Positions 2,830 to 61,036 of a DNA stretch of 64,000 bases are shown piece after piece; within the stretch, counting starts at the first letter, position 1, and each line of letters starts with the position of its first letter. Under the pieces are notes generated by a model. The model worked only from the letters and a program-made list of their open reading frames with translations, was not told where the DNA came from and did no database searches. Source of the stretch: Schmidtea polychroa (lineage: Eukaryota); contig CM097885.1 in assembly GCA_044892525.1 (NCBI GenBank), positions 28,336,001 through 28,400,000 of the forward strand. Reading direction: 5' to 3'. The translations under genes were made by a program, and so were the position numbers.

Positions 2830-3048
2830 TGTTAGGGATATTTAAATAATTAATTTATAAATAAAATATATATTATATTATAAGAAAAAGTATAAAAGCT
2901 GGCACGCATAATTATCATTATTATTTAATTAATTAATTCGCCATTTAAATCGGGTGTTTTAATAATACCAGATTTGGGCAATAATTTGTATTTTGCATTT
3001 TGTATTAAAAATAAATATTTCTAGATTAATTATTGGTTATTATTAACA
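2830..3048 (+). repeat. 5' LTR
   Basis: TGTTAGGGATA...TATTAACA, direct repeat of 8156-8374. Confidence 0.97.
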
Positions 3049-4169
3049 TGGCGACCCTGGCAATGATCAATAAAATGATCCCGGATATTTACGATGGCAG
3101 CGTCGATGTAGACGTTTTTATTGGAGAATGCAAGAGGTATTTCCAATTATGTGGACTAGAACAATCCAGCCAAAGTATGATGATCAAATGTTTAATCGCA
3201 AGAGAGTTGTTGCCAATTTATGAAGCAATAGAAGAAAATGAAATTTGTTTTGAAGACAGATTGAAAAAGGCTTTCAAGAAACCAACGACGTTGATAGGGG
3301 ATTTTCTAACCCTCTGCAATTATGAAAAGAACGATGATACTGCTCCAATATATTTCGAAAAAATAGAAAAGATGGTTGACCAAGTTCTGAAGCACAAATG
3401 GGACAAGAAAGAATTAATGTCATATTTTTTGGTCCATTGTATCAAAGACAAGGATACACAGAAAGAAATAAAGATGAGAGATGCGATGAGCGTCGAGGAA
3501 ATAAAAGGAGTGATAAAGAAGGTCGATGATATAAACATTGAAGTATCCGGAATTTCAGTTTTGAATAGAAGGAAGGAAACGTTTGCGAGTATTGTCAAGA
3601 CGAGACAAGGATTTGCCGATAGACAGAACCAAAGCAGAACTTTTACAAATTCACAACGAAGTGAACACAGATATGATTCAACACCGAGGATGAAAGCCGA
3701 TAATTTCCAGAACAGATTCCAACAAAGAGAAATGCCGGTTAGAAGCAGACCAGTTATTACATGTTGGAATTGTCAGGAGGTGGGTCATATGAGTCGAGAA
3801 TGTCGGAAACCAAGGGTTCAGAAATGCTTCCAATGTGGAAAAGAAGGGCACCAATCCAGAGAGTGCAATCAGAGATTACAGAATGCAGAGATGAGATGTT
3901 TTGCGTGTAAAGATATTGGACACAACAGAAGAGAATGCCCATCAATATCGTGCTCAGGATGCGGTAGAAGAGGCCACCTACGATTTCAATGCTGGAATCA
4001 GACAGACAGAAGAAGATACGCAGACGAGCGGGGACCACCGAGACGGACACAGGTAGCCGCGTTTCAGGCTGATCAAGCCGAGAACGACGTAAAGATTTCA
4101 TGCCAAGACGAAGACTACCCAAACCAAGAAGCTCCATCGTTGGGCGAGATGATCGGAGCAATGAATTAA
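3048..4169 (+). CDS. gag: Gag with four CCHC zinc knuckles
   Basis: CWNCQEVGHMSREC, CFQCGKEGHQSREC, CFACKDIGHNRREC, CSGCGRRGHLRFQC; first in-frame ATG at 3048. Confidence 0.92.
   Translation: MATLAMINKMIPDIYDGSVDVDVFIGECKRYFQLCGLEQSSQSMMIKCLIARELLPIYEAIEENEICFEDRLKKAFKKPTTLIGDFLTLCNYEKNDDTAPIYFEKIEKMVDQVLKHKWDKKELMSYFLVHCIKDKDTQKEIKMRDAMSVEEIKGVIKKVDDINIEVSGISVLNRRKETFASIVKTRQGFADRQNQSRTFTNSQRSEHRYDSTPRMKADNFQNRFQQREMPVRSRPVITCWNCQEVGHMSRECRKPRVQKCFQCGKEGHQSRECNQRLQNAEMRCFACKDIGHNRRECPSISCSGCGRRGHLRFQCWNQTDRRRYADERGPPRRTQVAAFQADQAENDVKISCQDEDYPNQEAPSLGEMIGAMN
3049..3062 (+). promoter_or_regulatory. Primer binding site, probably tRNA-Arg
   Basis: TGGCGACCCTGGCA directly after the LTR, complementary to a tRNA 3' end ...GGGTCGCCA as in Arg(TCG/CCG) tRNAs. 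Confidence 0.75.
4118..4159 (+). promoter_or_regulatory. Putative -1 ribosomal frameshift signal (gag to pol)
   Basis: C CCA AAC heptamer in gag frame at 4118-4124, 6-nt spacer, stem-loop GCTCCATC...GATCGGAGC (4131-4159); the -1 frame is open downstream. Confidence 0.7.
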
Positions 4170-4284
4170 TGGGTAATAATGACGATTGTGTATGCCAGTA
4201 TAATTGTATAAGTAAATATAAATATATTAATAGTATTAGTAGTAAAGTGAATAGTATAATTCCTTTTGTAAATAATGTATATAA

Positions 4285-4633
4285 CAGGGGTGCCCACTAA
4301 TTTTTCTAGGAGAGCTACATTCACATCAAAAATGTGTATGCGATCTACTTTTTTAATACTTACATAATATTTAAACTAAATAAACAAAATTAAATTAAAC
4401 TAAATTAAACTAAATAACATTTTGGAAATGGTGAAATCAAAATTAAAAAATGTTATTTAGTATTACCATAGAAATGGAACACAGAACATGAAAATTGGCA
4501 AAAAATTTAAGCATAAAACAGAAATTTTATATAAAATCTAAATTTATATAAAAAATATTTTTTTTATGAAGATCTACTAAAAAATCCTTCGCGATCTACC
4601 GGTAGATCGCGATCGACCTTATGGGCACCCCTG
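4285..4633. mobile_element. hAT (Charlie/Buster-like) MITE nested in the Gypsy pol 5' region
   Basis: 12-bp TIR CAGGGGTGCCCA/TGGGCACCCCTG, perfect 8-bp TSD GTATATAA (4277-4284, 4634-4641), palindrome GCGATCTACCGGTAGATCGC. Confidence 0.95.
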
Positions 4634-4892
4634 GTATATAATGTAGAAAATATTAATAATAACGTGAATAGTATAAGTCCTTTAGTAGATAATTTAAATA
4701 AAGTAAATAATAAAATGTTGGATGAGAATAATGTAATCAGAAATAATGGTAGCAGTAGAATTGTAGGAAATATCGATATAGTTGGAAAAAATAATGAGCT
4801 AGAAACAAATTTTAAAAAAAGCGAATCAATGTGATATAATAGAAAGTGTAAAAAATAAAGTTACGGATATTCATGATGCAATTATTTTAAAT

Positions 4893-5624
4893 ATGCCTAA
4901 TGAAAACAATTTTGAAAAAATAAAAATTGATGACGATAATAAAAAAGAATGTAAAAATAATTGTACTCAGATTTTATCGATAGATGATGTAAAAAAATTA
5001 AAAAAAACAGAAAATATGATTTATGTACATAATGAAAAGGATAAAATATTTGATACATGTGACTGTAAAATACAATATAGAAGTGAAACATATTTGAAGA
5101 AGGATGAGTATAATATTGTTTATGATAAAATGGGTGGACGTCCAAGTGTAATAATAGGCATAAATAATTACTTTAAGAATTGTTTGTTGGATACAGGAGC
5201 TAGAATGAATGTGATTGATAGTTCGATTATAAAGGAGATCGGAAATCCAGTTTTAAACGAACACGGAGACAAAATCTGGTGCGCAAATGGTAGTCCATTA
5301 AAAACTTTGGGAAGAATCAAGCTTAGAATAAATATAGGAAGTAGAGAAGAAAATATTGTTTTTGTAGTAGTTGAAAATGTATCTCCATCGATAATTGGAG
5401 GAATCGATTTATTACGTAGGTTTGACATAAAACTAATGAAAGTTATCGGAAATAACATCGAAAATGCAAGCGAATATAATAATATGGAAATATGCAACAT
5501 TGAAGCCAAATTTGGGAAAAGAACGAGTGATGAACTTCGATTTAAAAGAGCAATAGAATTAATAGGATTAAGGTGTGACGACAAACTTTATGGAGTAATA
5601 AAAAAAATGCCGAAGTATTTATGA
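4893..5624 (+). CDS. pol: Pol segment with aspartic protease (frameshift-bounded)
   Basis: LLDTGA active site and IIGGIDLL motif; joins the RT frame by a 1-nt change in the A8 run at 5600-5607. Confidence 0.85.
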   Translation: MPNENNFEKIKIDDDNKKECKNNCTQILSIDDVKKLKKTENMIYVHNEKDKIFDTCDCKIQYRSETYLKKDEYNIVYDKMGGRPSVIIGINNYFKNCLLDTGARMNVIDSSIIKEIGNPVLNEHGDKIWCANGSPLKTLGRIKLRINIGSREENIVFVVVENVSPSIIGGIDLLRRFDIKLMKVIGNNIENASEYNNMEICNIEAKFGKRTSDELRFKRAIELIGLRCDDKLYGVIKKMPKYL

Positions 5625-8161
5625 TAGATAAGTGGGATATAGGCAAAACCAATCTATTAAAGCATGATATTAAAACTGTTGAAGGACCAATCCATTTGAA
5701 CCCAAGAAGACAGGCAGCCCACCTAGAAGAAAAGATTGAAGAAGCTATTAAAAATTTGGAAGAAAACGGCATAATTAGGAAGTGTGACTCACCGTGGAAT
5801 ACGCCGTTAGTATGTGTCTGGAAGAAGGAGAAAAATGATATTCGATTATGTTTAGATTTTAGAAGTTTAAATAAAATGACAGAAAGACAAATCTTCCCAA
5901 TGCCTAATATCGAACAGATGTTAGATTCATTAAATGGATCAATGTACTTTAGCACCATTGATCTGGGAAGTGCGTATTATCAGGTTGAATTGACAGCAAA
6001 TTCGCAAGAAAAGACAGCGTTCTCAACAAGATCTGGGCAGTTCTGCTTTAATAGGATGCCATTTGGGATTGCTGCTGCTCCAGCTACATTCCAAAAATTA
6101 ATGAATATGGTTTTAGGAAAATTATTATGGAAAATTGCTATAGTGTATTTAGATGATATTTTAATATTCTCAAAAGACAAAGAAGATCATATAAAAAGAA
6201 TAAATGAAGTATTAGAAAAAATAAAAGAAGCAGGATTGAGAATAAAACCTGAAAAATGCAAATTTTTGGTGAAGGAAACAAAATTTCTTGGTCACATTAT
6301 AACTTGCGAAGGTGTTAAAGTCGATGAAGCTAAAATAGAAGCAATAAAAGGGTTTCAAAGACCAAAATGTTTAAAGCAATTGAGGAGTTTCTTAGGACTG
6401 TGTAATTATTACAGAAAATTTATAAAAAATTATTCAAAATTCGCAAGAATATTAGAATCGATGTGCGGAAACAATAAAGACAAGTTAGTTTGGTCACAAG
6501 AATGTCAAGAAAGTTTTGAGGAATTGAAGAAAGCACTATCAACTAAACCAGTTCTAATATATCCTGATTATGAGAAAGAATTTATTTTGGATACGGATGC
6601 CAGTTTCAACACTATAGGAGCTGTTTTGTCACAGATTGATGATCTAGGTAATGAACGTGTTATTGCCTATGGTTCACATACGATGAGTAAACATGAAATA
6701 GGATACTGTATCACGAGAAAGGAACTTTTAGCAATTTATTACTTTGCACAGCATTTTAAGCACTATCTTTACGGCAAGCGATTCCAGCTAAGAACGGATC
6801 ACAAGGCTATAACATTTATGATGACAACAAAAAAACCTATAACGGCACAATTTCAGACATGGATAAACTTCTTAAGTAGTTTAGATATGGATATTAAATA
6901 TCGAAAAGGAATTGACCATTCGAACGCTGACGCATTATCGAGAGATAAATGTGGGAAATGTACACAGTGTATGGAAATCCATGAAGATGCCAAGACAGAG
7001 AAAGTAAAAACCAGATTGTTGGCAATGACAGCCACTAAACATGGATTGCAATGGCAAAAAGGTAATGAAGAGATAGAACATATGAGAAAAGCAATAGATA
7101 AAAATGAGACTACAAGATTTAAAATCATCGAAGATTTAATTTTAACAAGAGAAAATAAAATTTGGATTCCAAAAGTAAATAGAATAGAATTTGTCAAAGA
7201 GATGCACAAAATGTTGTGTCACGCTGGATGCAAGAAGGTAATCGATTATATAAAAGTTAATTACGATATGGAGGAATTAAATACAATCGCGACTCAATAT
7301 ATTCAAAGTTGTGAAATATGCCAGAAACGAAAAACATTGACAACAAAAACAAAAGAAATAATTGTAAAAACACAAGTGGCGGAACCGTTTGAGGTTATAG
7401 CGATAGATTTTTGTGGACCTTTGCAGGCAAACATTCATGGAAAGAAATATATTTTGGGAATTATAGATATGTGTAGTCGATACATTTCGTTGACAGCAGT
7501 AGCAAAGCAGGACGAAAAAACTACAGCGGATACTATTGTGAAATTCTGGATATTAAAATACGGGGCACCGAGAATTATTCATGTTGATTGTGGAAAAACA
7601 TTTGAGTCTAACTTGATAAAAGAATTGGCTAAGAATCACAATATACAGGTACAATTTTCTAGCCCTTATCATCATAACACTAATGGTTTGATTGAAAGAC
7701 AATTTCGAACAATACGAGATTTTATCAGTACATCATTAAGAGATAATCTTAAGAGAAATTGGTTTGAAGTGTTACCTGAAATTGAGTTTACTTTAAATGC
7801 TACCATTCAAAGCACAACTGGAAAGAGTCCATCAGAAGCAGTATTTGGTTTTCGGATATCTAGAGAATGGAACAATAATAAAAGAATATACAACGATAGA
7901 AGTAAAATAGTGGAGGAAGTGCAATCAAAACAAAGAAATTTAAATTATAAAAATGAAAACCGAATACACCGAGAATTCGATATAAATGAAGAAGTTTTAG
8001 TTAAAGTAGATTTGAGAAAAAAAGAGGAGGACCGATATACAGGACCTTTCGTAATTGTTAGAAAGATCCATGCAAATAGTTATGAATTACGAGACAGAGA
8101 TGGGAAAATTATAATCCGCAACGTTGAATGGCTAAAACCTTTTAAACAGGGGAGATGTTAG
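5621..8161 (+). CDS. pol: Pol: reverse transcriptase, RNase H, integrase
   Basis: RMPFG, YLDD, TDAS, RTDH, HxxG..C..C zinc finger, IDFCGP, D-G, GLIER, GPF motif. Confidence 0.96.
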   Translation: MIDKWDIGKTNLLKHDIKTVEGPIHLNPRRQAAHLEEKIEEAIKNLEENGIIRKCDSPWNTPLVCVWKKEKNDIRLCLDFRSLNKMTERQIFPMPNIEQMLDSLNGSMYFSTIDLGSAYYQVELTANSQEKTAFSTRSGQFCFNRMPFGIAAAPATFQKLMNMVLGKLLWKIAIVYLDDILIFSKDKEDHIKRINEVLEKIKEAGLRIKPEKCKFLVKETKFLGHIITCEGVKVDEAKIEAIKGFQRPKCLKQLRSFLGLCNYYRKFIKNYSKFARILESMCGNNKDKLVWSQECQESFEELKKALSTKPVLIYPDYEKEFILDTDASFNTIGAVLSQIDDLGNERVIAYGSHTMSKHEIGYCITRKELLAIYYFAQHFKHYLYGKRFQLRTDHKAITFMMTTKKPITAQFQTWINFLSSLDMDIKYRKGIDHSNADALSRDKCGKCTQCMEIHEDAKTEKVKTRLLAMTATKHGLQWQKGNEEIEHMRKAIDKNETTRFKIIEDLILTRENKIWIPKVNRIEFVKEMHKMLCHAGCKKVIDYIKVNYDMEELNTIATQYIQSCEICQKRKTLTTKTKEIIVKTQVAEPFEVIAIDFCGPLQANIHGKKYILGIIDMCSRYISLTAVAKQDEKTTADTIVKFWILKYGAPRIIHVDCGKTFESNLIKELAKNHNIQVQFSSPYHHNTNGLIERQFRTIRDFISTSLRDNLKRNWFEVLPEIEFTLNATIQSTTGKSPSEAVFGFRISREWNNNKRIYNDRSKIVEEVQSKQRNLNYKNENRIHREFDINEEVLVKVDLRKKEEDRYTGPFVIVRKIHANSYELRDRDGKIIIRNVEWLKPFKQGRC

Positions 8162-8374
8162 GGATATTTAAATAATTAATTTATAAATAAAATATATATT
8201 ATATTATAAGAAAAAGTATAAAAGCTGGCACGCATAATTATCATTATTATTTAATTAATTAATTCGCCATTTAAATCGGGTGTTTTAATAATACCAGATT
8301 TGGGCAATAATTTGTATTTTGCATTTTGTATTAAAAATAAATATTTCTAGATTAATTATTGGTTATTATTAACA
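8156..8374 (+). repeat. 3' LTR, preceded by PPT AAACAGGGGAGA (8144-8155)
   Basis: Direct repeat of 2830-3048. Confidence 0.97.
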
Positions 8375-14434: not shown

Positions 14435-14774
14435 ATTGAAATTATTAAAAAAGTAATGATTTATCATTCTATTTGTTTTTATTTTTACATCTTGTATTTA
14501 TATGTGACCAATGATCCTAGGATTTCAATGCAATTTTATATAAAATATGTTTATAAACATTCAAAAGACAAACATATTTTATAAAATATTTTCATGTTTG
14601 ATGGGTAGTTTGAAAATTTATGAATTTTTTTGCTAATTAGTATAAGAAATAATTGCAGTCAAATCAAAGTTTTAAGACAATCACAAATGAAATTAAAATA
14701 ATTTTATATTAACGAAATAAAAGAAAGTTAAATGAAAAATAAGATGAAATAGTAATATAAATACTACTACTAAT

Positions 14775-15032
14775 ATAAACAGCACAAGCTTTGTGATACC
14801 CAGTGCAAGTCCCAATAGTAGACTAGTTTCTGTGACCAAGCTAAAAAGTAAGTTATGTGATTTTCAGGTACCAGGGAAATTATGCAATAAAGTTCAATCA
14901 GCAATATTGTATACTTACCTGGCGCAAAGAGAAATCTTCGCGACTCCTGCATAGTACTGATGAGAGCCAAAAGCTTGAAATTAGTTTACTATTGGGACTT
15001 GCACTGGGTATCACTAAACTTGCACTGTTTAT
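14775..15032 (+). mobile_element. U1-headed hammerhead repeat (family A), copy 1; 5'-truncated with an inverted 3' segment at 14775-14830
   Basis: ATACTTACCTGGCG at 14911; hammerhead at 14951-14992; 14775-14830 is the reverse complement of the element's 3' end. Confidence 0.85.
14951..14992 (+). ncRNA. Minimal type I hammerhead ribozyme (three C-to-T changes versus copies 2 and 3)
   Basis: ATAGTA-CTGATGA-GAGC CAAAA GCTT-GAAA-TTAG-TT-TACTAT. Confidence 0.75.
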
Positions 15033-15086
15033 TTTAAAGTGTAATACATCCGACAAAAATTATTTACAGTTATTTTATAATATTAC

Positions 15087-17616: not shown

Positions 17617-18299
17617 TCCTCGTAGTTTGTCAGTCTTCAACAATAGTTTCTTTTTTTATATATGTAAGCATAAAGTGATGATTTCTTGGTAGCAGCATTA
17701 ATTAAATTTTTAAACAATTAAATGATAATTTAAGACTTCGCTGCATATTTATTTTAAATATTTTAAAACAAACACTTTTTTCCTTTTTAAAATTTCTTTA
17801 AAAAAATATTATTTTAATTATGTTTTAACATAACTATTATTCAATATACATCAACATACAAAAACTTAATTAAAAACATTCAACACACACGTATTTAGGG
17901 CATTCTGCACATTGATTTTGGGATTAAAAGTTCTTATCGAAAATGCTTCAAATATCACACACTCAAAGCAATAATTAAATTTTTAAAACCAGACATTTCT
18001 AATTCTCTCATACAGCCTTTTTGATTCTTAATATTTGACAATCCCTTCGGTCGACAATGTTCTTGCACTCGAGTTTAGAGATTATGGAAAGTCTCTCCAA
18101 TGTATGGAGAATTGACGGTAATAAAAATACTTGTATTAACCAAAATATCCTTTGTCTTAGGAAATAACAGCTTATTTTATGCATCACACAATTAATTACA
18201 AATAAATCTAATTAAAGTTTATTCAAAGTAAATGATAACTATCACTATAAAATATGATATCAATGACAATTTATCAAATAAAAATATATAATTTATTAA

Positions 18300-27747: not shown

Positions 27748-27820
<73 letters not shown>

Positions 27821-27835
27821 ATTATTATTATTAAG

Positions 27836-28150
27836 ATAAACATTACAAGCTTTGTAATACCCAGTGCAAATCCCAATAGTAGACTAGTTTCGAGCTTCTG
27901 GCTCTCATCAGTACTATGCAGGAGACGCGAAGATTTCTCTTCGCGCCAGGTAAGTATACAATATTGCTGATTCAACTCTATTGCATACTTTACCTGCTAC
28001 ACTGGAAATCACATCTCTTGCAAATTCGCTAAATCATAGAATAAAATATCTGCAAACCTGTAAACATGAAAAATCATATTCGCCTCGGGAGATACCGTCA
28101 TACACACAAACTGTTTACAAGTGCATCCGTAAACCTTTAGCATTTTTAAC
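27836..28150 (-). mobile_element. U1-headed hammerhead repeat (family A), copy 2
   Basis: U1-like head ends at 27957, hammerhead 27876-27917, shares its 5' boundary with copy 3; 3' end abuts (AAT)n. Confidence 0.9.
27876..27917 (-). ncRNA. Minimal type I hammerhead ribozyme, intact core
   Basis: ATAGTA-CTGATGA-GAGC CAGAA GCTC-GAAA-CTAG-TC-TACTAT. Confidence 0.88.
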
Positions 28151-28437
28151 TTGTAATGGATTAAAATATTTTTTTACGGATGTCAATTATTATAACTATT
28201 ATTATTTTGATTATTTTTATTAAATATTAATTTTTCAAGGTCATATTATTATTTTTCAAAATATTATTTATTTTTCAAGGTCATATTTTTAAAATATAAA
28301 TTTTCAGAGTTCCCGCCAATGGATTTTAGTATTTGATAGCTCATTCGAAAGGTATATGAGAGGTAAGTATCATAGTCATACCCAAAAAGGTCCAAGGATC
28401 CGAGGTTCAAATTTTTAAAACATAATAATATACATAT

Positions 28438-32840: not shown

Positions 32841-34183
32841 TAGGGTGGAGCTTAAAAATTAAAAAAAATTAAAAAAAGTATTTTTGAAAGTCTTACCCTC
32901 CTAATCTGTTCCTTATAATATAGAAACACTACATAAAAAGTTTGAATAATAAATTATTGTGTTTAGGGGTAGCTCAAGTGCTTCAAATTTACCAAAATTA
33001 TGAAAATTACATAAATTCTCAATTTATTTGTAACAAATCAGTATAAATTTTTCAACACAATTAGATTGCAATCTCAGTTCAGTTTTGGGAAGAGTTCAGG
33101 GTGTCAGTTCAACAATTTCCAAATTTATTGTTTATGTGGTACTCCAGACATAGTTTGTTTCCTGCTGTCAGGGTACATTCGACGATGATCCTCGACAACT
33201 TGCAGGAGGAATTGTAACTGTGATTCATCGTGAGTTAACAAGCCGCTGTATTTTTTATCAGCTCAATTAGTCTGAAAAAAATTAGAAAAGGCATTTTTAT
33301 CAATCATTTGGCATTTGGAATCACGAATTTTACCATTTTAAATATGAAACATTAAAAACAGTTATTTAGCAGTGTTAACTCAACAATAATTGTATTAATA
33401 AAGTAGAGCAATATGCCTCAATCAAGCAAACATTCTGAATTGCCATACTGCTGCAACAATTCTAAAAATATTTGGACTCAACCAGTCAACCTCTACACTG
33501 CAATACACAGATTGTCAAATAAGGTCATACACATTACACAATCAAACACATACACACACAAATTACACATATTTGAAACTTTAAGATAAACCATAAACCT
33601 GTAACATGTGATAATACATTGTATAAATTTAAAAATAATTTCAAATACCTGGTTTGCTGTAGTGTAGTGTTGATGAAAAAATAATCACATTTACAAATTT
33701 ATCACTATTTCAATCATTAATAATAAATAGAAACAAAAATTGTATTTCTTCTGCTTAAGTTAGCAAAATGGCTGTCAGCTTTGGTAGTCTATTGCATTGC
33801 CTCTAACCTGTGAATAAGTAAGCAAACCTACATGCATCAAGGGCAAAAGTTAGTTACTTTTATTAGAAATTAAAAAACACTAAGCTGATGCAAAAATTTT
33901 ATGATAATAATGATAATTACGTAATATCATAAGTTTAGTTTTATTTTGTTTGAATGAACAATTCCAGCTATTATTGATTGTAATGATTAAAAATGATTAA
34001 AGCCCCTTAACCAGTAACCACACGGCTTGTGAAATATATTTTACACTGAAAGAATACAATTATGGACCCGTCGGAGTCTGACGACCAGAGTGCTGGAAAC
34101 TCCACTGTCATTGAGCTACCTCTAAATATTGTTCAATTGTGCTCATATGTTGTCTGAATTATTATTTCATAAATAGGAACAAG
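32841..34183 (-). mobile_element. hATm-like transposon 3' remnant inserted in the piggyBac transposase
   Basis: TAGGGTGG terminus; minus-strand LTHDESQLQFLLQVVEDHRR resembles the C-terminus of hATm-type transposases; splits piggyBac HYP|PADVR. Confidence 0.6.
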
Positions 34184-35341
34184 TGGATAATGAGTTGCTG
34201 ACGTTTTCTGCCTTTTCGCTTCAATTGCAGTTTTTATTTTTGTGCTAGATGGTCTACCTTTTCGGGTTGTAGACGTGCAAGTTTTACATAAACTCTCAGC
34301 TACTTCAAGTCGAAAATCCAATAATGACATAGTGTCCTTGTATCTTTCGTCGAAAGCGCGTTTATATAATAACCATGAATTTACCAATGATACATCTATC
34401 AAGTGGTAAAAAATTCTTATGTACCATTTTTTGGATCTTATTTTAATTTTATATCTACAAATAAGACTATCAGTTTTATCAACTCCACCCATAAAAATAT
34501 TATATTCTTTGATTATATTTGGGCATTCTAAAGTAATCATTTCCTTTCGATTTTTGTCAAAACGTTCAGCTGTTTGTATTGGCTCCTTTCCTGTGAACGT
34601 CGAAATCAAATTTACAAGCTTGTTATCTTTCCAAACTACAGTTGCAATTTCAATTTCATCAATGCATCCAACATATTCTACAATAGTGCCACGTTTTTCC
34701 TTTTTTAATTCTATTTCTGTAGGTAGCTTGCAATTTGGGATGCGATTTCTGCGAACTGTTCCAACGGTATATATTTGGTTTTTTGATAATTCTACAACTA
34801 ATGGTAACGTGGTATAATAATTATCGAAATATATACGATAAATTTCATATTTTGGAACACTGCGTAATAATTGTGATGAATATAATATAGTTTGTTCGAC
34901 AATATTTTCCAATAGTTCATCAGTCCAAAGATATTTAAAAAATTCATACGATGTTTCTAGATTTAAAACACTTGTTGGGAGAGTTGAATTTCCTTTGAAG
35001 GCGAGTTGATCGGATTTATTTGGAAAATCTTTTTGTTTCCACAAAATTTTTGAATATTTATTTCTTAAATCTTTCGCCGCTACTTTTGGATCAACAAAAG
35101 TGCTACTTGTACTAGGAATATTTGATATATTTTCACAAATTTGTTCCGTTTCATCATTCATTATTACAGGTAAATTTTCAATGTCAAACAAATCGTTATC
35201 ATCGTATTCAATAGGTGGCAAAATTTTGGGATTGATAACAAATTCACATTCAGATTCCAATTCATCAAATTGATCTTCACTGTCGTCCCATGCTTCCATA
35301 ATGGCTTGTATTTCCTTTTCATTTAGCGTGTCTCTATTCAT
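34133..35341 (-). pseudogene. piggyBac transposase (first catalytic region deleted, C-terminus displaced)
   Basis: FDNYYT, GTVRRNR, WKDNK, YN..MGGVD..D, KKWY motifs. Confidence 0.9.
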
Positions 35342-36499
35342 TTTTACTGTAGAACTAAATTAAAATTATTTATATATTATATTATATTACTAACATTATT
35401 TTAGATAAGTAGTAAAGCTAACATATTATAATAAAAACATGCGACAGATTATAATAGTACTGTATATTTTTGTTATAATATTTATATTTACTACAATGCA
35501 TGATGTATCAACAGTGATACATGAAGTTAATATTGATATATAAAGGAAATAACAATAAGTTATATAATAAAATGTTGTTTTAATAAATAATATAGTATAT
35601 TATTAAACAAATTTAACTCAACTTACGCTTTTTATATAAAAAATTCAAAACGTATAACTGATTGTTGTCTAAGTACTTTGTACACTTTCACTTAAACTGT
35701 AAGACGTTTTAAAAATTGATTTGGTAATACAAAACTATTGAGAATTACATTACGGTTTTTTTGTATTATATTGCAAATATAGCCAATACAATGTAATATG
35801 AGAGAACATTTACCGAGAACAAGAGCGAGACAGTTTTTATTCTAATAAGATAATTGTGTATCACCAGTGATACAATATGCAGTGTAGGGTTAACAAAGAC
35901 TTTACAAAAAATGTGTTTGATTAACAAAGATACTAGAAATATTATCTTTGCATTTTGTCGAAGATGATTATGACAGTAATATCAGGGGGAAAAATGGACA
36001 GAGGAAAAGCATCATTATGATTGATAATGAATATGTCATGAATTGTAAATTTCCATATATATAAATAACACTATTTCAAAAATTAATCCAAAAATTAAAA
36101 CAAAATGAATTAATAATGTATGTATTTTAATCAAAAAGTATTACAATAAAACAATAAATTTATAAAAAACAAATTAAAACATTTATTTACGAAACAATAA
36201 TAACCAATACATAATGTCACACACATAATGTCAACTTAAAAATATTGGTTAGGGTTTCTTTTGCTTTTCGAGCATCTTCATGGTTATTGCGAAGATCTTT
36301 TTCCCATTTTGATGAACTCATGGGTATATTTCATTCTAAATAATCTAAAAATAATATTATATATTATAAATACCATATCATTTCCTTCATCATATCACTA
36401 CCAGTTGGTAGTTGCGTTCGTACCCAATATATTTAATTACCAAGATGATTTCATACTGTTCAATGTTTGAAAATTTTCCCCATCATAGCACCGTCATTA

Positions 36500-40424: not shown

Positions 40425-42270
40425 TACAAGCTGCAATAAACAGCGGAAAAGGAGTTCAGATAGCAGGATAAAAAATAAGTATCCTAGCCTATGCAGATGA
40501 CCTCGTCTTAATGGCACCACAACATCACTTGATACAAGAACTGCTAGACATAATCGTAGAACAAGCTAAACTAGCCCATCTGATATTTAAACCAGAAAAA
40601 TGTGGATATTATATCAACAAAAATGACAACGTTGGCTGGGAAAACAACATTTATCTTAACCGCATCAAGATCAAAAAGATAAACGAGGAAAATCTATACA
40701 CTTACTTTGGGGTCTCAATAGGAAATACAAAAAAAACGACCTAAATGAGATCTTCCAAGAAGTGGAAGCCAAAACAACAAGCATATTCAAATCACTCATA
40801 AGAGCTCAACTAAAGATAGAAGCATAAAACACCTTCTGTCATTCGAAATTCATATTTATCTTACAAGCAGAGGAAATAACAAAAACCCAAGCAGAAAAAT
40901 TCGATGATAAAATTAGAATGATGATAAAAGATAAAGAAGTGCTAGATCTACAACAGAAAAGCCCACTAATGGATGCCATCCTCTACTCCCCTAAAGATAA
41001 AGGAGGAATAGACATAACCAAAATCGTGGATGAACAGATGATACAAACAATAGAAAGATTCCTAAAACTGATAAACAGCAAACATACAGCAATAGTAAAA
41101 ATTATCGCAGAAGAACTGATTGATGTAGCCGAAACCAGAACTGAAACTCCCATCAACTCACTACCAGAAGCATTGAAGTGGCTGGATGGAACATATGAAC
41201 ATAAAAGATCAAGCTTAGCCAAAAAATCCTGGCTCGATAGAATAAAAAACGCAATCACACAACTGTACAAAGACCACAATATAAAGGTTAACTTTATAAT
41301 TAGAAATATAGGTAGAGGATGCAACATCAAATGGAACTCACAAGAAAAACCGGAAGAAGTTTTTCCACCTCATCTAGATGAATCCTCAAAGAAACTACAC
41401 TGGATGATTAGTGAGGCATACTTTCAAAAATGGACAGAAACCAACTGCCAAGGCCATATTTTGAGATTACCAAAATCAGAATACACAGACTGGTACTTAT
41501 CATTTCTAGATAGAATGACTACTACATGAAAGATCACATAATTAAGGCTTGAGCTAACATGCTTGACATAAATATGAAACAATCAAACCAAGGAGGCAGA
41601 TTAGGCAGCACAAAGTGCAGAAATTGTGAAAATCCCCACGAATCATCCATACATGTCCTAAACATATGTGTGAGAGGAACCAGAATGAGGACCAACAAGC
41701 ACAATGAAATACAAAAAGCACTGGAAGAAATATTAAGAAACAAAGGAATCAATTTTGAAACAGAAAAAAACCAAAAGAAGCGAAGGAAATGTTAAAACCA
41801 GACATTGTAGCCAGATTAAAGGATCACATAATGATAATAGATGTAAAATGCCCATTTGATGACCATCCAACCATTGAAGCATCAAGAACAAAAAACCAAA
41901 ACAAATACAGAAAATTAGCACAAGACATCCAAGAAGCAACAAACACATATGCAACAGTAGAAACATTCGTGGTATGCTCCCTCCAAACATGGGACAAACG
42001 GAATAATGATGTATTTAGAAAATTGGGACTCAGATATGAAGAGTACATGCCCATAAAGAACGAAATGATAGATAGAGTGATTAAAGGCTCCAGAAAGACA
42101 TATGAAAATCATTGGGGCTTCCATCAATAACACAAGAAAACAAGAATGGATGATTGTTCCCGCATCCTTAAAATGGCACACACGAATATTAAACACCCCA
42201 TACAGTAGCTCGCCTACTGTATTTGGCCTGACATATTTATTATGCTGACTTTCATTTTCATTAATAAAAT
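40425..42270 (+). mobile_element. 5'-truncated non-LTR retrotransposon with restriction-like endonuclease (R2/NeSL/R4 group), degenerate
   Basis: LAYADDLVL RT motif at ~40483; P.DKGG; CRNC...E...HVLN.C zinc knuckle; KHN; LKPDIV; IIDVK; K..KY; 3' UTR hairpin TACAGTAG..CTACTGTA and AATAAA. Confidence 0.9.
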
Positions 42271-45600: not shown

Positions 45601-45694
45601 ATAATCCTATTACACACTGTTTAATTAAAAACAAACTGTTTTAATTAAAACACACTGTTTAAATATTTAACCAAATTATTTATTTAAAATAAAA

Positions 45695-46660
45695 ATGCCG
45701 CGAATCCAAAATATAACAAAACTTACGGAATTAATATACAACGATGAAGAGCTAATTGCAACCAGATTTAAATCCGACAGTCTTTATGATGACTTGAAAA
45801 AATCCAAACTTGAAGTATTAGAATTTGTGGCTAGCTTAGGACTTATTAAAAATACCATGGATTGTGAAATGTGCAATGCACACATGAAGTTAGTAAAAGC
45901 GAAAAGGCTAGTTGATGGTTATGTGTGGAGCTGCACACTCCCATGCCGAAAATCAACTTCTGTGCGATTCGACTCAATATTTTTCGATAGCAAGTTACCG
46001 CTAAAAGATTTGTTGATGACTATATTTTTTTGGTCAAAAAATCAACAACAAGATGAAATTTCTAATGATTTGACTTTAAATAAAAATACATTGGTCGAAA
46101 AATGTAAAGATCTTCGTGAATTGTGTGCGATGGGTTTGGAGGGATTTAACGATGTATTGGGGGGTATTGATGCGGACGGAAATCCAATCGAGGTTGAGAT
46201 TGACGAGTCATGTTTTTCGAAAAGGAAATATAATAGAGGCCGTCTAACAAACAGTAAGTGGGTTTTCGGCGCTTATGAAAGGGGTACTAAGAAGTGTTTT
46301 TTGGTAATAGTGCCTAATAGGAATGCTGATACTCTATTAAGAATAATAAATACGCGTATTCTGCCAGGAACAAGAGTAATAAGCGATGGATGGGCGGCTT
46401 ATCGTCGTATAATTGAAAGCGGGCTTTTTACGCACGACGTTGTCATACATGCGGACAACTTTGTTTCACCAACAGATACAAGCGTTCATACGCAAAATAT
46501 CGAATCAACATGGGCTCATGCTAAAAGAAAATTACGAAACCAATACGGATCGAAAAAATTATATTTAGCGGGTTATTTAAGTGAGTTTTTGTTTCGTCGG
46601 AAGTGTGATAAGTTTAAGGTCTTCAATGAGATTCTGCTGGTCATCCGGAAATGGTGGTAA
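45695..46660 (+). CDS. Merlin (IS1016/ISXO2-like, IS1595 family) DDE transposase, intact 321-aa ORF
   Basis: C..C...C...C zinc motif, VEIDES.FSKRKYNRGR, WVFG, PGT.VISDGWAAY, H..V.H..NFV, HTQNIESTW. Confidence 0.92.
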   Translation: MPRIQNITKLTELIYNDEELIATRFKSDSLYDDLKKSKLEVLEFVASLGLIKNTMDCEMCNAHMKLVKAKRLVDGYVWSCTLPCRKSTSVRFDSIFFDSKLPLKDLLMTIFFWSKNQQQDEISNDLTLNKNTLVEKCKDLRELCAMGLEGFNDVLGGIDADGNPIEVEIDESCFSKRKYNRGRLTNSKWVFGAYERGTKKCFLVIVPNRNADTLLRIINTRILPGTRVISDGWAAYRRIIESGLFTHDVVIHADNFVSPTDTSVHTQNIESTWAHAKRKLRNQYGSKKLYLAGYLSEFLFRRKCDKFKVFNEILLVIRKWW

Positions 46661-49497: not shown

Positions 49498-49820
49498 TAT
49501 AAACATTACAAGCTTTGTGATACCCAGTGCAAATCCCAATAGTAGACTAGTTTCGAGCTTTTGGCTCTCATCAGTACTATGCAGGAGACGCGAAGATTTC
49601 TCTTTGCGCCAGGTAAGTATACAATATTGCTGATTCAACTCTATTGTATACTTTCCCTGCTACACTAGAAATCACATCACTTGGAAATTAGCTAAATCAC
49701 AGAAAAAAATATCTGCAAACTTGTAAACATGGCTTATGAAAAATCATATTCACCTCTGGAGACACCGTCATACACAGAAACTATTTACAAGTGCATCCGT
49801 AAATCTTTAGCATTTTTAAC
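49498..49820 (-). mobile_element. U1-headed hammerhead repeat (family A), copy 3
   Basis: U1-like head ends at 49620, hammerhead 49539-49580; colinear with 27836-28150. Confidence 0.9.
49539..49580 (-). ncRNA. Minimal type I hammerhead ribozyme, intact core
   Basis: ATAGTA-CTGATGA-GAGC CAAAA GCTC-GAAA-CTAG-TC-TACTAT. Confidence 0.9.
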
Positions 49821-50001: not shown

Positions 50002-50526
50002 TCGTTTAATTGTGAAAAACATTGTTTAATATGGTAATTATAAGCATCTTCAAGCACCTACAAAGAGAAGAGGAAATAAGTAAATTGCCGAAACTTGATA
50101 TTTTTATTATAAAAATCAAAGATACTTATCATAGTAATAATGTCTCAATCATTGGTGTAGCTAGGACTGGGTAACATGCTATTGGTTATTGTAGGCGTTA
50201 CCCTAATATAATTAACTAAACATGCACGTACAAACAACACTAACGATACAGCTGTCATCAGAAGTAATATTAGACAATATATACATCAAAACATTTTGGA
50301 TCAAACAAAGAAATTTACAATTGCACTCTCGCCTCACAGATCTAAAGAACTTTTATCTAAAGACCCAAGCCAACATAATAAATGTTATAATGAAACGTAC
50401 TATTAGTCAATGTGGAAGTACAGTCCAACTCCATGCTTGTGGCTTTGCTATTCTAATATTTTAGATGTGACTTATTGTGAATCTTGTTGGTTTTTTTCAA
50501 ACACCAACAGTCAATAGTAGTTAGTT

Positions 50527-51869
<1,343 letters not shown>

Positions 51870-52710: not shown

Positions 52711-54043
52711 CCCCCACAACATTCCTTATAATCTAGATGAGAGACTGCCTTTCTATTTTCAACTGTACAATACTATCTTCACCTATGCTTATACCACGAT
52801 GAAACTTGTAAATGTACATTTAATTCCAATGAATAAAAGTTTCTATAATCTAAAGAAATCGATAGAATTATGGTATCGTAACACACAAGCTTACATGTGT
52901 GTAAAAATTTAATGTTTTAATTAATAAAAGTTTATATAAAAATCGAGAAAGTGGTGCAAAAATAATTTAGCATACAAGCACAGCACACATAATAAAAAAT
53001 GCATGTAAATTTTTTAGAGGCTTTTTCATTTTAATGAATAAAAGTGATTAACATATAGCTAACATATTATTATTTCCAATTTATCCAAACAACATGGCGG
53101 AAAATATTTGAGAAAATCTTAGTAGAGAAAATGACATAAAAATTTCAAACGATTTATAAAATTATATAGAAATTTAATATTTCTTTAGAATTTCAAATTT
53201 TCAACCAGGTCCTACTACCTTATTTGATTTTGAGGGGGAAAATATTTGGATAGAAACAGAACATGTCAAAATTCGATTAATTGATGTTTTCAAAAATGGC
53301 AAAGATTACTATGAATTTGGAAAATTGCTGAAAATAAGCAAAAAATCGATTGGAACAATAATTTACAGATACATAAACTGGGAGAAATTTACAAAGGAAA
53401 AAGTGGCAGCACGAATGACTTATTGAAATATGTTATATATGCAATGTTATATATGTCAATTATATTTTATATTAGTAATTTACTATAGCAGATTCCAATG
53501 TCTTAGGTTGAAAAAAAGCAAAGAAAATGAATAAAAAAATAGCTCCGCAATTAACCTCGCACTTGGCCCCGCAAATGTTCAAGACGGCGCTGCCCAGTAC
53601 ATATTCATTTTGTACATTGAATGCACTACAATGTTTCGCTTCGCAGTGCCATTTATATTTTTGTAATTTTCATATTTTCCACATGCTTCGCAAATTTTAC
53701 TTTCTTTTCAATCATCCTCTTCATACTTTGTTCATTATGTTTTCATATCAACTCATCTCTTAATAAATAAATATGCAATGAAGAATGAAAATTAAATCAA
53801 AGAAAATAATATTTTTGGTCAATATCATAGTGGCAAAAAATACTTTATCCTAAAAAAAGTTTGGGTAAAAATATTTCAATTAGGATATAATAAATATAAT
53901 AAATGCCTTTAAGTTGATTTTTAAGCTTTAAGACAGTACCGCCAGATCTCCATGTTTTTCTGAGCTTTTCATTAGATATCTTTAGACATTTTGATATATT
54001 TGATATTTGCGTTTTGATAGTTGTTTTGTGTGATATGTGAAGC

Positions 54044-54445
54044 ATTATTGATAAGAACTTTTAATCCTAAAATCAATGTGCAGAATGAAGTGAATACGTG
54101 TGTGTTGAATGTTTTTAATTAAGTTTTTGTATGTTGATGTATATTAATAATAGTTATGTTAAATAATTATAAAACTAATTAAAATAATATTTTTAAATAA
54201 TTTTAAAAGTTTAAATATAATTGATTATTGAAAATTATTTTTTAAAAAATAATTGTTTAAAATTTTTATTTATAATTTAAAATTTATAGATTTTATAATT
54301 TGTTTATATATTATCAATATAGTATAGTTATTTAAGTTATTCGTGAATGTAGGTAACCTGATGATGAAAGTGATGCTATCAAAATATATAGTGAAAAAGA
54401 TGTACGAATGCCGATTTTTATTAATAAAATCTTTACCGTGTTTAT
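54044..54445 (+). mobile_element. PLE 3'-end remnant with decayed hammerhead (54355-54393)
   Basis: AATCCTAAAATCAATGTGCAGAATG matches 51375-51400; CTGATGA...AAAA TATATA GTG (GAAA mutated to AAAA). Confidence 0.7.
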
Positions 54446-55700
54446 TTAAGTATTTACGTTTTGATCTGTCTTGTAGGATGAGATAAATGGATATGTAAAT
54501 TTATATACATTTAGTACATAATTTAATAAAGATTCTATTATTTTTAATTACTCACAGCAGACTTTGAAGGATTTTTATTTGTTATAGACAGTGCTTTTTT
54601 ACTGGAACAAAAGGTGCCGGAAAATATATGTACTATCGTTAATATGCAAAAAAATGACGCTGAAATTAGCAAACAAATAAAATAATTATGCAGGACACAA
54701 AATATACACTTATTACCGGCGACAGAAAACGATTTTAATGACGTATATTAATGGCGTATATTTACCGTGAGCATGTTTTATATAATAGTAATAACACATA
54801 GGAAGCACGGAGTTATGATTCACTCGCTTTGGCATACTGCTACTACTTTTAATTTGATTGTAATTAACTATTTAAAATTGACTATTTAATTTTCTTACGA
54901 TAATGGCGCATTATATTTAGTAGCCCACGGACGCCGAATTTCTTAAGACAGCCCTGTGTATGTTTAACTATTTATTCAAAAATTTTTATTTTGTATGTAT
55001 TATTTAAATATGTTTCATTAATCCTTTTTATTCTTACTTTTGATTGACTTTAATCCTTATTTCACCTTTTTTTATTTTAAGTTGTTATTTGATATATCCG
55101 ACAAGAACAAGGGTTATTTCTTAATTTACACAATGGCTTTTAAACTTTGCAGATATACTTTTAGTAAAAAAAATAGCATTGTACGCTTTGTTGCTTGTTT
55201 CATGGGAAATTGAGTATTGTATTTGGGCGGAATTTATGAGATTGTATTGCGTACTCATTACTCTTTTTCTAGAATTCAAATAATTTAGTGCGTACTTTAG
55301 GTAGCATCACATAAGTAGATAGAATCTTTGTCATTTCATTTTGATAATTAATAAAATGTCATTCCAAATCATGTTCATAACCATTTTAACGCTGCAGTCT
55401 TAATTCATCTAAATTATCATATGGGTGTCGCAAATGTTTCCCGAATTCTAGCATGTACATGTGTGCACACACCAATGAGATAGATAATTGGACTTGTTGA
55501 TTGGTTCGCCGATTAATTTCAATGCTATTGGATTAACTTTAGAAAATATGCGATTATTAAAAACAATTAAAAAGATCTTCATAAATAATTAAATTTTTTA
55601 TAAATCTAAGACAGATGTGTTAAATGAAATTGGTTTTTTCTTTATCAAAAAAAAGATTTCACTTCATTCCCACTCAACGAGTATTTCCAATTTCCAATTA

Positions 55701-56510
55701 TTAAATAGACACAGGGCTGAAATGCATCAATCGACTAATTTTTATACGATTTGTCTGGGAATCGGGTTTTCTCCAAAAGAAAAATCTTTGAAATTCATTT
55801 CGAAAATTCTCATTCAACCAACTATATAAAATGGGATTAGTGCAAGCCGAACTCAAAACCAATAAAAGACATACAGCCTGAGTTATTGTAACGGTTTGCG
55901 TATAACTAACAGTGGACTGGGTTGCCGTTGCGCTGTAATACGATGTGACATTTTCCATATCTTTATTGTAATAATACAACTGAAAATCCATGGCCATATT
56001 GTTGATATTCAATGGCAACCAACTCAAAGTAAATACTACCGCGATACTGAATAACAAAATGTTTACTTTTCGTTGGCGGCTGATTTCAACTGAATGTTTT
56101 TGCTCTTTTAATAAACTGAAAGAACTGAATTGAGATAAATTTTTAGAATCTTGAAGTAGATTTGATTGCGTTGCATGATTTGTACTGGCACATTCCTGTT
56201 TTGGATTGTTTGAATGTTTCCTGATTCGACTTTCCATTCTTTTATATATTTTTGTGTACACGGTTAGCAAAATAATTAACGGCAAAAGATATTGAAACAA
56301 CATTCCGAACACAGAATAAACTAATTTCATTTCACGGAAGAATTGTTTGCTAGACAATTCTGTGCATTCATATCGAATCGAATGAACGGAATCCACATGA
56401 GAGAAAATTGCCAAAGGACTTGCTAGAATAAACGCAAAGAACCATATCAGGATTATTACTCCCGTGGCGCCACGGTTGTCCAATGCTGTTTTTGTAGGAT
56501 ACATTATTAC
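55701..56510 (-). CDS. Terminal exon (end of TM3 to C-terminus) of a rhodopsin-class neuropeptide Y/F receptor-like GPCR
   Basis: Acceptor TTTATTTCAG|GTAATAATG; VIMYP, IW...LASPL, C.E, QYLLPL, FTLSWLPLN, SSACTNPILYSWLNENFR motifs; TM1-3 exon not found in the window. Confidence 0.9.
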   Translation of the reverse strand, partial: VIMYPTKTALDNRGATGVIILIWFFAFILASPLAIFSHVDSVHSIRYECTELSSKQFFREMKLVYSVFGMLFQYLLPLIILLTVYTKIYKRMESRIRKHSNNPKQECASTNHATQSNLLQDSKNLSQFSSFSLLKEQKHSVEISRQRKVNILLFSIAVVFTLSWLPLNINNMAMDFQLYYYNKDMENVTSYYSATATQSTVSYTQTVTITQAVCLLLVLSSACTNPILYSWLNENFRNEFQRFFFWRKPDSQTNRIKISRLMHFSPVSI

Positions 56511-57354
56511 CTGAAATAAAACGAAAATAAAAGATGTTCCAGATTTGCTTTTAATAAACTAAAGAAAAATTAAACATGTTTTCATTTAAAAAAAATTTGT
56601 TTTATTTATCTTCATTTCTTTAATGGACTATCGATCAATATTTTGATTAATATTTTATATAAAATTCGTTTTAAACATAAAAAATATCTATAGTCAAAAA
56701 AGATAAAGGAACTCAAAATAAAAATCTATGGTTAAAAACAATGAAAATGAAGATTATTGATAATAATAGTTTAATTTATTATTTTAATTACTTTTAAATC
56801 ATTTTAAAAATACCAAATAAATAATAGGTTTATAAATATTTATTTTAAGTTATTTATCAAAATTATTATTTTCAAAATATTTGACAGCAGATTTTTACAC
56901 ACAATTTTTATTTATTTATTCGATCAATACTGGCGAAGTACGGTGTGTTGAAAGAGTATGGACGTAATCAACACAAGTTAGTGACTTGAGATTTCGATTC
57001 ATTATTCTTGACACGACAGTAATTTAAAAGGTTACCCGATAATTTCAAGCTAAGAGTTAAACTTACTGTTCCTGCTATTGTAGCGCGTATTTGACCCTTT
57101 ACATCTAATGACATCTCATACTGGTTATAGCTCAATTTCATTTCGCTGAAAGCTATTTTATTCCTCTAATAATACAAATATTCCATTTAGGATGTTATAG
57201 TCACGTTTGTTAACAGAATTAACCCGATAAATACGTCTATTAACTAAGAACATCCATGTAATTAATGTTTAAAAAGGAATATATAATTTAAAGTTATTTA
57301 TTTGAAAAACGCCAACTAAGTATACTATATATTATATATATTATATAGTATATA

Positions 57355-59149: not shown

Positions 59150-61036
59150 TCAGGTTCGTTGTTTTTTTAACCATGAACTCGAACCCTGTTGAACCCAGAA
59201 ACTCATGCAGGTTCGGATTCATAAATTTAAAAAAATTATTCTGTGAAACATCCCATGAAACATCCTGAATTATATAAGGAAGCTCAAAATCAGCCTTCAG
59301 CAGGTAAAATCAGTCAGATTTCCAATAAAAGAGCCAGAGCAGAAGAAAATACACTTGAACAGTATTTGAATGTAATCAAAATGTGCAAAAAAAGTTTTAT
59401 TGATTCATGCTTAAAGTTAGTAACCGTTAATGGCCGCCCTTTCACAATTTTTGAGGATTCTGGCATGAAAGAAATAATTGATTCGATTATGAGTGCACTA
59501 AAAATATCAGTTAATAGCCATAATGTAGTTGATCCTGTTAACGACAAAGCAATGGAAATGAGAAATAAAATTAAATTGGAAATGTCAAAAAAAATAATTT
59601 CAATCAAAATTGATTCTGGTTCTCGCCTTGGAAGATGTATTGTAGGAATAAATACTCAATATATTTTGACGGAAAAATAAAGCTACGAACTTTGGACATG
59701 CATGAGGCCCAAAATAGCCAAACATAAAAAATCTTATCATCAGTGTTCTTGATTCTTATGGCATCAAATTGCATCAAGTTTATTCAATTACGTCAGATAA
59801 TGGGAAAATATGATTAAAGCTGCTGAATTATTGAAAGACGATTATGAAAACTTTGAAACGGAAGATGAATTTCACATAGCTGAAGAAAATGCTTTACTAA
59901 TATTGAACAAGAAGGAGCAGAAACATTAGCAAATTCGTACCCAAATATTATTCATTTCAAGTGTGTTGCTCATAGTGTACAGTTGGCAGTGCTCGATACG
60001 ATATCTAGTCCTGCTTTTAAGAAAATACTAGATGAATGCAGAGCTATTTGCAAAAAATTACGAACACCAAATATTTCTTCTTTAGCTAAGAAGCTAAACA
60101 TGAAAAATAGCCATACTAGACTGTCCAACTAGGTGAAATTCGACGTATGACATGATAAAAGTCCTTTTGGAATGCAAATATTTTTATTCGGATTTAATGA
60201 ATGTTGAATTAACTATGAATGATAGTATTTGGAATATTTGTGAAGAATTTGTTGAAGTTTTTGCACCTGTTAAAAAATTAACACTTAAACTACAAGAAGA
60301 TCAGATGAATTTAGGTGATTTTTATGGAGTCTGGCTGAGTTTTAAATTAGAGCTGACAAAAAATGATCAAACAAAAAAATTATCCAAAGAATTAAATTAG
60401 AATAGAAAAAAACTTTATTAATAATCCACTTTTGATTGCAGCAGTATATCTAGATAGCAGATTTAGATTAATGCTAAGTCCTGAAGACGTTTCCAATAGT
60501 AAGAGGCAAATTTTAAAAACAATAAAAAATTTCAAAAATTTACAAATGGAGAGAGAAGAAGATAATTTTATTACAACAGAAAATTTTAGTTCTTCAGAAG
60601 AAGAAGAGGAAATTCTTGAACAAATTTTAAAGAAGAAAGAAAAGTTTTTTCAAATTAATTCGGAAAATATAAATTTCACATCTTCCATTAATAGTTCAAT
60701 TAAAAATGAGATGGAAATATACGAAAGTTATACAAGGCTGGCAAAACAAAAAAGTATTTTAGAATTTTGGGAGCAACATACTTTACTATATCAGTTGGCC
60801 CAAATAATATTTGCAGTCCCTGTTACACTAGTTAGCGTAGAGAGGGCTTGTTCAGCTTTAAAATGTATACTATCACCACAACGAGCAAATCTAAAAAATA
60901 TTTTAACTGTTAAATTAAATGAAAAATTTTTGAAAAATAAATAAAAGATTGTGCTTTTTTTTCTAAATTTTGAACCCGAACTTTTTATTTTGATTAACCC
61001 GAACCAGAACCCAATTTTTCCGGGTTTCAGTCTCTG
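59150..61036 (+). mobile_element. Degenerate hAT (Ac/ZBED-like) transposon
   Basis: GRPF, TSDNG, CVAHSVQLAV, CPTR*NSTYDM, AVYLD.RF, PVT.VSVER motifs; GAACCC subterminal repeats; right terminus GTTTCAGTCTCTG. Confidence 0.85.

Follow-up and report, generated by a model that had tools for sequence, protein, structure and literature searches.

In the stretch of Schmidtea polychroa DNA analyzed here (64,000 nucleotides, below called the window), copies of one repeat join a sequence matching the 5' end of U1 snRNA to a hammerhead ribozyme. The locus raises the question of what kind of element this is, and whether its U1-like stretch serves as a transcript start, as a splice-site-recognition arm, or simply as one strand of a structured RNA. 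The original prediction, made from the letters alone, saw a non-autonomous retroelement headed by a captured U1 promoter and 5' end, and releasing a U1-like RNA by self-cleavage.

Copies in the window

Three copies carrying both the U1 motif and a hammerhead are indeed present (motif at 14911, 27957 and 49620, core at 14957, 27911 and 49574). The U1-like 11-mer has no other match in the window, whose GC content is 21-33%; the match at 14911 is on the + strand, those at 27957 and 49620 on the - strand. The features of the three copies are the following.

27836..28184, - strand: copy 2, an almost complete unit of subfamily A (about 370 bp), whose 3' end is at 27836
27942..27957, - strand: U1-like arm of copy 2, 16/16 bases as in host U1 nucleotides 1-16; 18/19 as in the C4 U1 variant, to 27939
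27979..27996, - strand: upstream arm of copy 2, the pairing partner of the U1-like arm together with the 6 bases preceding it
27925..27946, - strand: GC-rich hairpin of copy 2, its 5' strand corresponding to U1 nucleotides 12-16/19
27872..27922, - strand: canonical type I hammerhead of copy 2, core start at 27911, predicted cleavage after 27882, palindromic helix III
27836..27871, - strand: 3' stem of copy 2, ending at the main insertion end (putative start of reverse transcription)
27750..27833, no strand: (TAA)n microsatellite, 3' flank of copy 2, the target
28017..28024, - strand: look-alike of the host snRNA -68 motif in copy 2, one mismatch, at -66, not significant
49498..49820, - strand: copy 3, truncated on its 5' side (unit position about 52), with the arm at 49605-49620, the core at 49574 and predicted cleavage after 49545
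14827..15036 (about), + strand: copy 1, 5'-truncated; arm 14911-14926, core 14957, three changes in the hammerhead
14771..14830, - strand: 3'-end piece in inverted orientation, joined to copy 1 at its 5' junction

The hammerhead cores of copies 2 and 3 are intact, and the three changed positions in copy 1 include the cleavage base. The GC hairpin is found as described, pairing best in copy 2. ATAC and GUC are 76 nt apart, and the usual 3' end lies 46 bases past the GUC site, close to the tail of about 45 bp reported before. The 5' boundary thought to be common to copies 2 and 3 is not a true end: copy 2 matches the family for at least 34 bp more, to 28184, the unit continues head-to-tail into the preceding unit, and at many loci the DNA found before the supposed boundary is the 3' end of that preceding unit.

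Repeat unit and family size

The true unit is 367-383 bp long, is repeated head-to-tail, and contains one canonical type I hammerhead. Its GC content is 34%; in a 372-bp unit the U1-like arm lies at position 251, the predicted cleavage site at 326. The sole stop-free frame across copy 2 (104 codons) extends into the microsatellite, and no LTR layout is present in the unit. A 20-mer taken from the 3' half of the hammerhead is matched 2,436 times with one mismatch or fewer throughout the 781 Mb of genome searched, its reversed control never. The U1-like motif is not a chance occurrence, since a 15-mer derived from it has 1,181 exact matches in the genome (a few being U1 genes) against none for the reversed control. 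On the proposed check of copy number and tandem arrays, the family numbers at least 2,400 copies, and 97 hammerhead pairs spaced by 358-388 bp occur genome-wide (none in the control), in arrays of up to 12 units. The longest array found, 12 units of 378 bp, is located at C2:10176055-10180225.

Sixty-five near-full copies divide into subfamilies A (50 copies) and B (15 copies), the members of each being about 96% identical to their own majority sequence. Eight units of a 378-bp subfamily, taken from six loci, were compared. Five of them differ by 0-5 bases, and come from four loci, two of which overlap; among the remaining units one differs by 9-12 bases and one is out of register. As the units 0-5 bases apart reside at loci separated by up to 54 Mb, the family moved recently, and is, judged by sequence, a recently active retrozyme family.

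Seven near-identical loci at C1:6.37-7.22 Mb host a hairpin-deleted copy of the element, and have common flanks with a distant RT; they represent either a local segmental duplication or a carrier element. A candidate second family, featuring the U1 arm and a different helix II, was rejected, its 21 matches being 20 mutated copies of the same family and one unrelated sequence. A pattern scan of metagenomes gave 30 matches, none with both hammerhead helices, and these are attributed to chance.

Hammerhead ribozyme and RNA folding

The ribozyme had been described as a minimal hammerhead. It rather fits the definition of canonical type I (taken from PMC4209133), having 6 bp in helix I, which bears a looped extension, 4 bp in helix II, and 1-2 bp in the palindromic helix III. 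The CTGATGA core is kept in 36 of 40 copies. In the suggested Rfam scan of the window U1 gave no match, and the hammerhead matches remained below cut-off (23.9 bits for HH9 on the copy 3 hammerhead, the cut-off being 52). The palindromic helix III can pair between two copies, as had been supposed, the core strands cofolding at -6.2 kcal/mol; weak-helix-III canonical type I hammerheads of newt and axolotl cleave well as dimers (PMC7229834).

The unit-length RNA folds far better than its shuffles (z = -8.3 linear, -9.6 circular), and the hammerhead strand folds at -121 kcal/mol, the minus strand at -92 kcal/mol. By analogy with the coding Penelope family of this genome, the hammerhead strand is the sense strand. 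No covariation signal was given by RNAalifold on 30 close copies.

Insertion ends and mobilization

Ends were analyzed in 70 distinct copies from the first 40 Mb of contig C1, picked by the hammerhead 3' half alone among the first 100 of the 2,436 matches. At the 3' side, 39 copies stop 46 bases past the cleavage site, 25 add a tail of about 50 bases, and 6 continue into the next unit. The sequence then passes into AT microsatellites or unique DNA, and poly(A) tails are absent. A microsatellite follows 22 of 64 element ends, 15 of 28 ends of a coding Penelope-type family, and 3.5% of random windows. The 5' ends are spread over the whole unit, 51 of 70 lying more than 10 bases beyond ATAC. One copy only starts at ATAC, and the U1 motif, being internal (position 251 of 372), does not head the element as originally claimed. 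Eleven of the 70 fall inside the 21-base GC hairpin, where about 4 are expected on an even distribution, an excess noticed post hoc. Inverted pieces are frequent at 5' junctions, that of copy 1 included.

Two 3' ends with an intervening tail have been interpreted as the trace of internal initiation by the Penelope protein (PMC11167929). A fixed 3' end with an optional tail, ragged 5' ends, inversions and microsatellite targets bear out the idea of a non-autonomous hammerhead retroelement of Penelope type. The end pattern, as read from the copies, points to Penelope-like mobilization, and hence to a non-LTR retrozyme.

The genome has a coding Penelope-type family of 3,876 candidates, with open frames to 873 amino acids and more and a match to RVT_1. 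It has the same layout of two 3' ends and a sense hammerhead, with a terminal sequence different from that of the retrozyme. The unit is not the terminal repeat of an ORF in any of 161 element loci (some overlapping, out of a family of at least 2,400 copies), a sample in which a rare coding parent could be missed. The Penelope protein is matched at 26 of the 161 loci, one of which (L239) has a fragment on the same strand, 0.9 kb upstream. The mobilizing enzyme would, by analogy, be of Penelope type.

A decayed Penelope-type RT/GIY-YIG element is found in the window at 50521-51765 (+); it carries a hammerhead (51673), and its target is (TA)n. It belongs to the coding family just described, which is young and abundant and has two alternative 3' ends, and related pieces reside at 54027-54456 and 17785-18106. 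This relic, located beside copy 3, was considered as parent of the retrozyme and rejected, because it is on the opposite strand and has a different terminal repeat.

The U1-like stretch

Host U1 genes gave 42 matches; 28 snRNA matches fall in 12 regions, and at least six distinct 5' ends were found. The element matches one U1 variant at 16/16 bases and the C4 tandem variant at 18/19. The match starts exactly at U1 +1, and there is no further match before or after. The original prediction would have been weakened by a host U1 diverging right after the 11-mer; instead, 5-8 further bases match. No U1 prefix longer than 13 bases arose in 20,000 dinucleotide shuffles, and 1 of 3,000 shuffles matched 16 bases at some place in the six U1 variants. 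From these comparisons the U1 match is taken as real and beyond chance, coincidence retaining a low residual probability.

Capture of a U1 promoter is not supported. The 195 bp upstream of the motif belong to the structured unit of the element itself, and base pairing of the arm is predicted for the unit-length RNA. When these 195 bp were compared with the flanks of 20 U1 loci, no alignment was seen beyond AT-rich words of 10-14 bases among the matches listed, the first loci falling outside these.

Several host U1 variants have a C-to-U change in the splice-site arm, a change described for planarian U1C (PMC6312358). A tandem array at C4:74.00-74.07 Mb (period about 1.77 kb) contains two different U1 variants per unit, one of which has this C-to-U change, and a U4 array of similar kind is located at C4:78.9-79.1 Mb. 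Short sequences in the tail of the element that resemble the U1A and U1-70K loops were dismissed as chance, being in the wrong order and inside stems.

Pairing and divergence of the arm

In folding predictions of the unit-length RNA the U1-like arm is paired with a probability of 0.85-1.0 at 15-16 of 16 positions, its partners being an upstream inverted copy and the GC hairpin. A diverged relative was seen in a second species, organism B (run X12, which like run X7 consists of contigs and may derive from RNA), by aligning public contigs to locus L003. Small shares were given by sediment metagenome runs too. Five of the 8 pieces listed stop at L003 1620-1628, U1 +1 being 1622. Majority differences affect the 3' strand of the hairpin (1590, 1594 and 1595), the vicinity of helix I (1585) and loop II (1562 and 1563); among the rows listed, none is inside the arm. 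GUA replaces GUC in 40% of the depth. In one upstream form of organism B (6 contigs, agreement 0.75) 9 of 30 bases differ, counted by eye; 8 of these keep pairing, one pair by changes on both sides, and the ninth belongs to a loop. Another form, also of 6 contigs (agreement 0.67), has arm base 2 changed, and its partner seemingly with it; a third, of 2 contigs, has one base changed inside the splice-site arm. The changes that keep pairing indicate that the upstream region evolves as the RNA structure holding the arm. Run X10, labelled organism B too, contains near-identical family pieces along with a diverged form, as a result of either a mixture or a common family.

Between species the hammerhead domain has fixed differences at 6-7 of about 118 positions, and with so few the unchanged 16-mer is not significant alone. 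Divergence drops at U1 +1, both between species and between subfamilies A and B, all but one of the A/B differences being upstream of this position. Substitutions in 40 ungapped copies (30 truncated or gapped copies were left out, and counts are small) amount to 15/440 in U1 nucleotides 1-11 (3.4%), 58/1,240 in the hammerhead (4.7%) and 92/1,360 upstream (6.8%). Buried as it is in a hairpin, the arm more probably represents a relic of capture than a functional decoy for splicing.

Origin of the element

The explanation that we hold to be probable is that of a non-LTR retrozyme mobilized in trans by a Penelope-like element, in which template switching captured a fragment of the U1 5' end, since retained as a stem. 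Tandem copies would be transcribed, neighbouring hammerheads would pair through the palindromic helix III and excise unit-length RNA, and this RNA may circularize, as suggested by the retrozymes of newt, axolotl and coral. A Penelope-type RT/GIY-YIG protein would then start reverse transcription 46 or about 95 nt past the cleavage site, the product inserting into AT-rich, often microsatellite, DNA. The U1-like stretch may have been derived from U1 snRNA at the RNA level: a reverse transcriptase stalled in the GC hairpin could have switched to U1 through the common GC(G/U)G bases and copied on to the first base of U1, an inverted (fold-back) duplication then supplying the U1 stretch with its partner strand. 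The stretch would now be one strand of a structural hairpin, neither a promoter nor an exposed splice-site arm. Addition of U1 pieces by template switch has been proposed for SINEU (PMC4494074). Against this explanation, no coding parent was found at the 161 loci, and no ancestral form devoid of the U1 piece was seen. The divergence drop at U1 +1 and the upstream position of the A/B differences would fit a functional boundary at ATAC as well, and the small counts from the 40 ungapped copies make U1 nucleotides 1-11 the part that changed least.

Alternative readings

It is unlikely that the sequence of the arm is itself selected inside the unit-length RNA, either because it masks donor-like sites in cis or because it opens to bind U1 proteins or pre-mRNA donors; the further step, that such binding protects or routes the retrozyme RNA, is improbable to the same degree. 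The arm is the same in both subfamilies while its partner changes, and in organism B the partners of U1 nucleotides 16-17 changed, nucleotides 16-17 themselves did not. The partner strand resembles a 5' splice site in subfamily A, although it has no GU donor in subfamily B, and a perfect donor would bind the arm at -14.0 kcal/mol, its own partner at -8.9 (computed values). However, given the 6-7 differences of the hammerhead domain, a stretch of 16 bases would stay unchanged in about a third of cases, and the arm does vary in organism B, as seen in the form with base 2 and its partner changed and in the 2-contig form.

A motif unrelated to U1, whether a 5' splice site on the antisense strand or a coincidental match within a structured repeat, seems quite unlikely. 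The reverse complement of nucleotides 1-11 is a perfect donor, introns occur in Penelope terminal repeats (PMC4209133), and the 11-mer alone would arise by chance in about 2 of 10,000 units, in genomes with many repeat families; the one shuffle in 3,000 with a 16-base match counts on this side too. Yet a donor covers 11 bases at most, leaving nucleotides 12-16/19, for which the chance is 0.0002-0.001 per U1 variant, and an antisense reading is at odds with the hammerhead strand, sense by the Penelope analogy, being the one which folds far better.

Promoter question and the 76-nt RNA

Very unlikely is the possibility that the unit holds an snRNA-type promoter, with start at ATAC and cleavage at GUC yielding a capped 76-nt RNA which shows the U1 arm and lacks an Sm site. 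The 76-nt piece is predicted to fold like the 5' end of U1, with nucleotides 1-10 mostly free and a helix from nucleotide 11; conservation rises at ATAC; and newt satellite 2 is cited as a user of an snRNA promoter (PMC2220036). A motif of the host may also be invoked. An octamer-like ATGYA located at -68 before several U1 and U4 genes may be a planarian snRNA promoter element: it is found at -68 in 5 of 8 distinct U1 upstream sequences, in the held-out U4 genes at -68 and -71 (2/2), and in U5 genes at -76 (3/3). The motif was picked by eye, its window is not among the top information windows, and a free motif search upstream of 11 snRNA genes performed no better than shuffles. Host U1 paralogues are barely alike upstream, and the two U1 types closest to the element include ones lacking ATGYA.

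The element has a one-mismatch version of the motif at -66 in 22 of 26 copies and the exact motif in none; one-mismatch matches are also given by 34% of random windows. With a host motif defined on few genes, the matrix p is 0.01-0.37 for subfamily A, according to the window, and 0.58-0.83 for subfamily B. Moreover, the upstream bases evolve as pairing partners of the arm in RNA, homology to the flanks of the U1 loci searched was not found, and one copy out of 70 starts at ATAC, with the proviso that copies derived from read-through or circular RNA need not show the start site. The model of a U1 mimic, with its snRNA-type promoter, start at the captured U1 5' end and capped 76-nt RNA, is coherent but very unlikely; as unlikely is its extension, in which the same arm would be free in the 76-nt RNA and locked in a conserved hairpin of the unit-length and circular RNA.

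Other features of the window

An LTR retrotransposon at 2830-8374 (+) has a Gypsy-like domain order (zinc knuckle, RT, RNase H, integrase), and its identical 219-bp LTRs indicate a very recent insertion. DNA transposon remnants, made up by DDE_Tnp_1_7 (piggyBac-like), ISXO2-like (Merlin-like) and hAT pieces, reside at 34133-35359 (-), 45671-46660 (+), 59231-60944 (+) and 62248-63047 (+). Two frames at 40828-42130 (+) resemble the C-terminal part of a restriction-like-endonuclease non-LTR retrotransposon; a Pfam scan of the first gave no match. An exon of a rhodopsin-family GPCR (7tm_1), neuropeptide-receptor-like by eye, is located at 55701-56558 (-).

Relation to known elements

Metazoan non-LTR retrozymes, as those of coral, mussel and axolotl, resemble the present unit in being non-coding tandem repeats of 150-450 bp with a GC content below 50%, in having one type I hammerhead per unit and strong self-pairing, and in occurring as monomers and multimers in genomes which also host Penelope elements (PMC7229834; 10.64898/2026.07.22.740005). 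In the same two sources platyhelminths are mentioned as having retrozyme-type repeats. The planarian unit differs by carrying a 16-19-base piece of the U1 5' end. Newt satellite 2 and axolotl HHR_Amex1 have a comparably weak palindromic helix III, a similar unit size and, by analogy, an expected cleavage as dimers. For the snRNA-type promoter reported for newt (PMC2220036) the planarian unit offers a weak and non-significant candidate, the one-mismatch motif at -66; a transcribed U1 sequence in the newt unit was not reported in the available portions of the literature searched.

Penelope pLTRs (Poseidon of Anolis, PMC11167929; PMC4209133) are alike in that a sense hammerhead is followed downstream by two 3' ends separated by about 50 bases, in 5' truncation and inversion, and in AT-rich targets. 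In contrast, the present unit is joined to no ORF in the 161 loci, its hammerhead is canonical and not minimal, and it has no sequence match with the terminal repeat of the Penelope family found in the window. SINEU of crocodilians (PMC4494074) is similarly a non-autonomous retroelement with U1-derived sequence, for which a template switch was proposed and, in the accessible part of that source, no promoter was found. The same part describes U1/U2 heads at the 5' end, poly(A) tails, Tx1 partners and no ribozyme, whereas the U1 piece described here is short, internal and paired.

No description of a planarian retrozyme, or of a hammerhead repeat bearing U1 sequence, was found in the main texts searched, and repeat catalogues may already list the family under a name of their own. 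The main text of 10.64898/2026.07.22.740005, which links animal retrozymes to Penelope repeats, mentions neither planarians nor snRNA in the part available. The retrozyme class is known; the short, internal and paired piece of the U1 5' end is what sets this family apart.

Some retrozymes seem to lack promoters according to the accessible part of a review (PMC7761336), and planarian U1 variants have been tied to stem-cell splicing (PMC6312358). Should the start at ATAC be true, it would explain how some retrozymes are transcribed, and the family would be a mobile element producing a U1 mimic, its thousands of copies turning a decoy of the U1 splice-site arm on and off. A young and abundant retrozyme with Penelope-type ends supports the notion that Penelope proteins move animal retrozymes and offers a system in which this can be tested; it also seems to be an instance in which a ribozyme element captured snRNA sequence.
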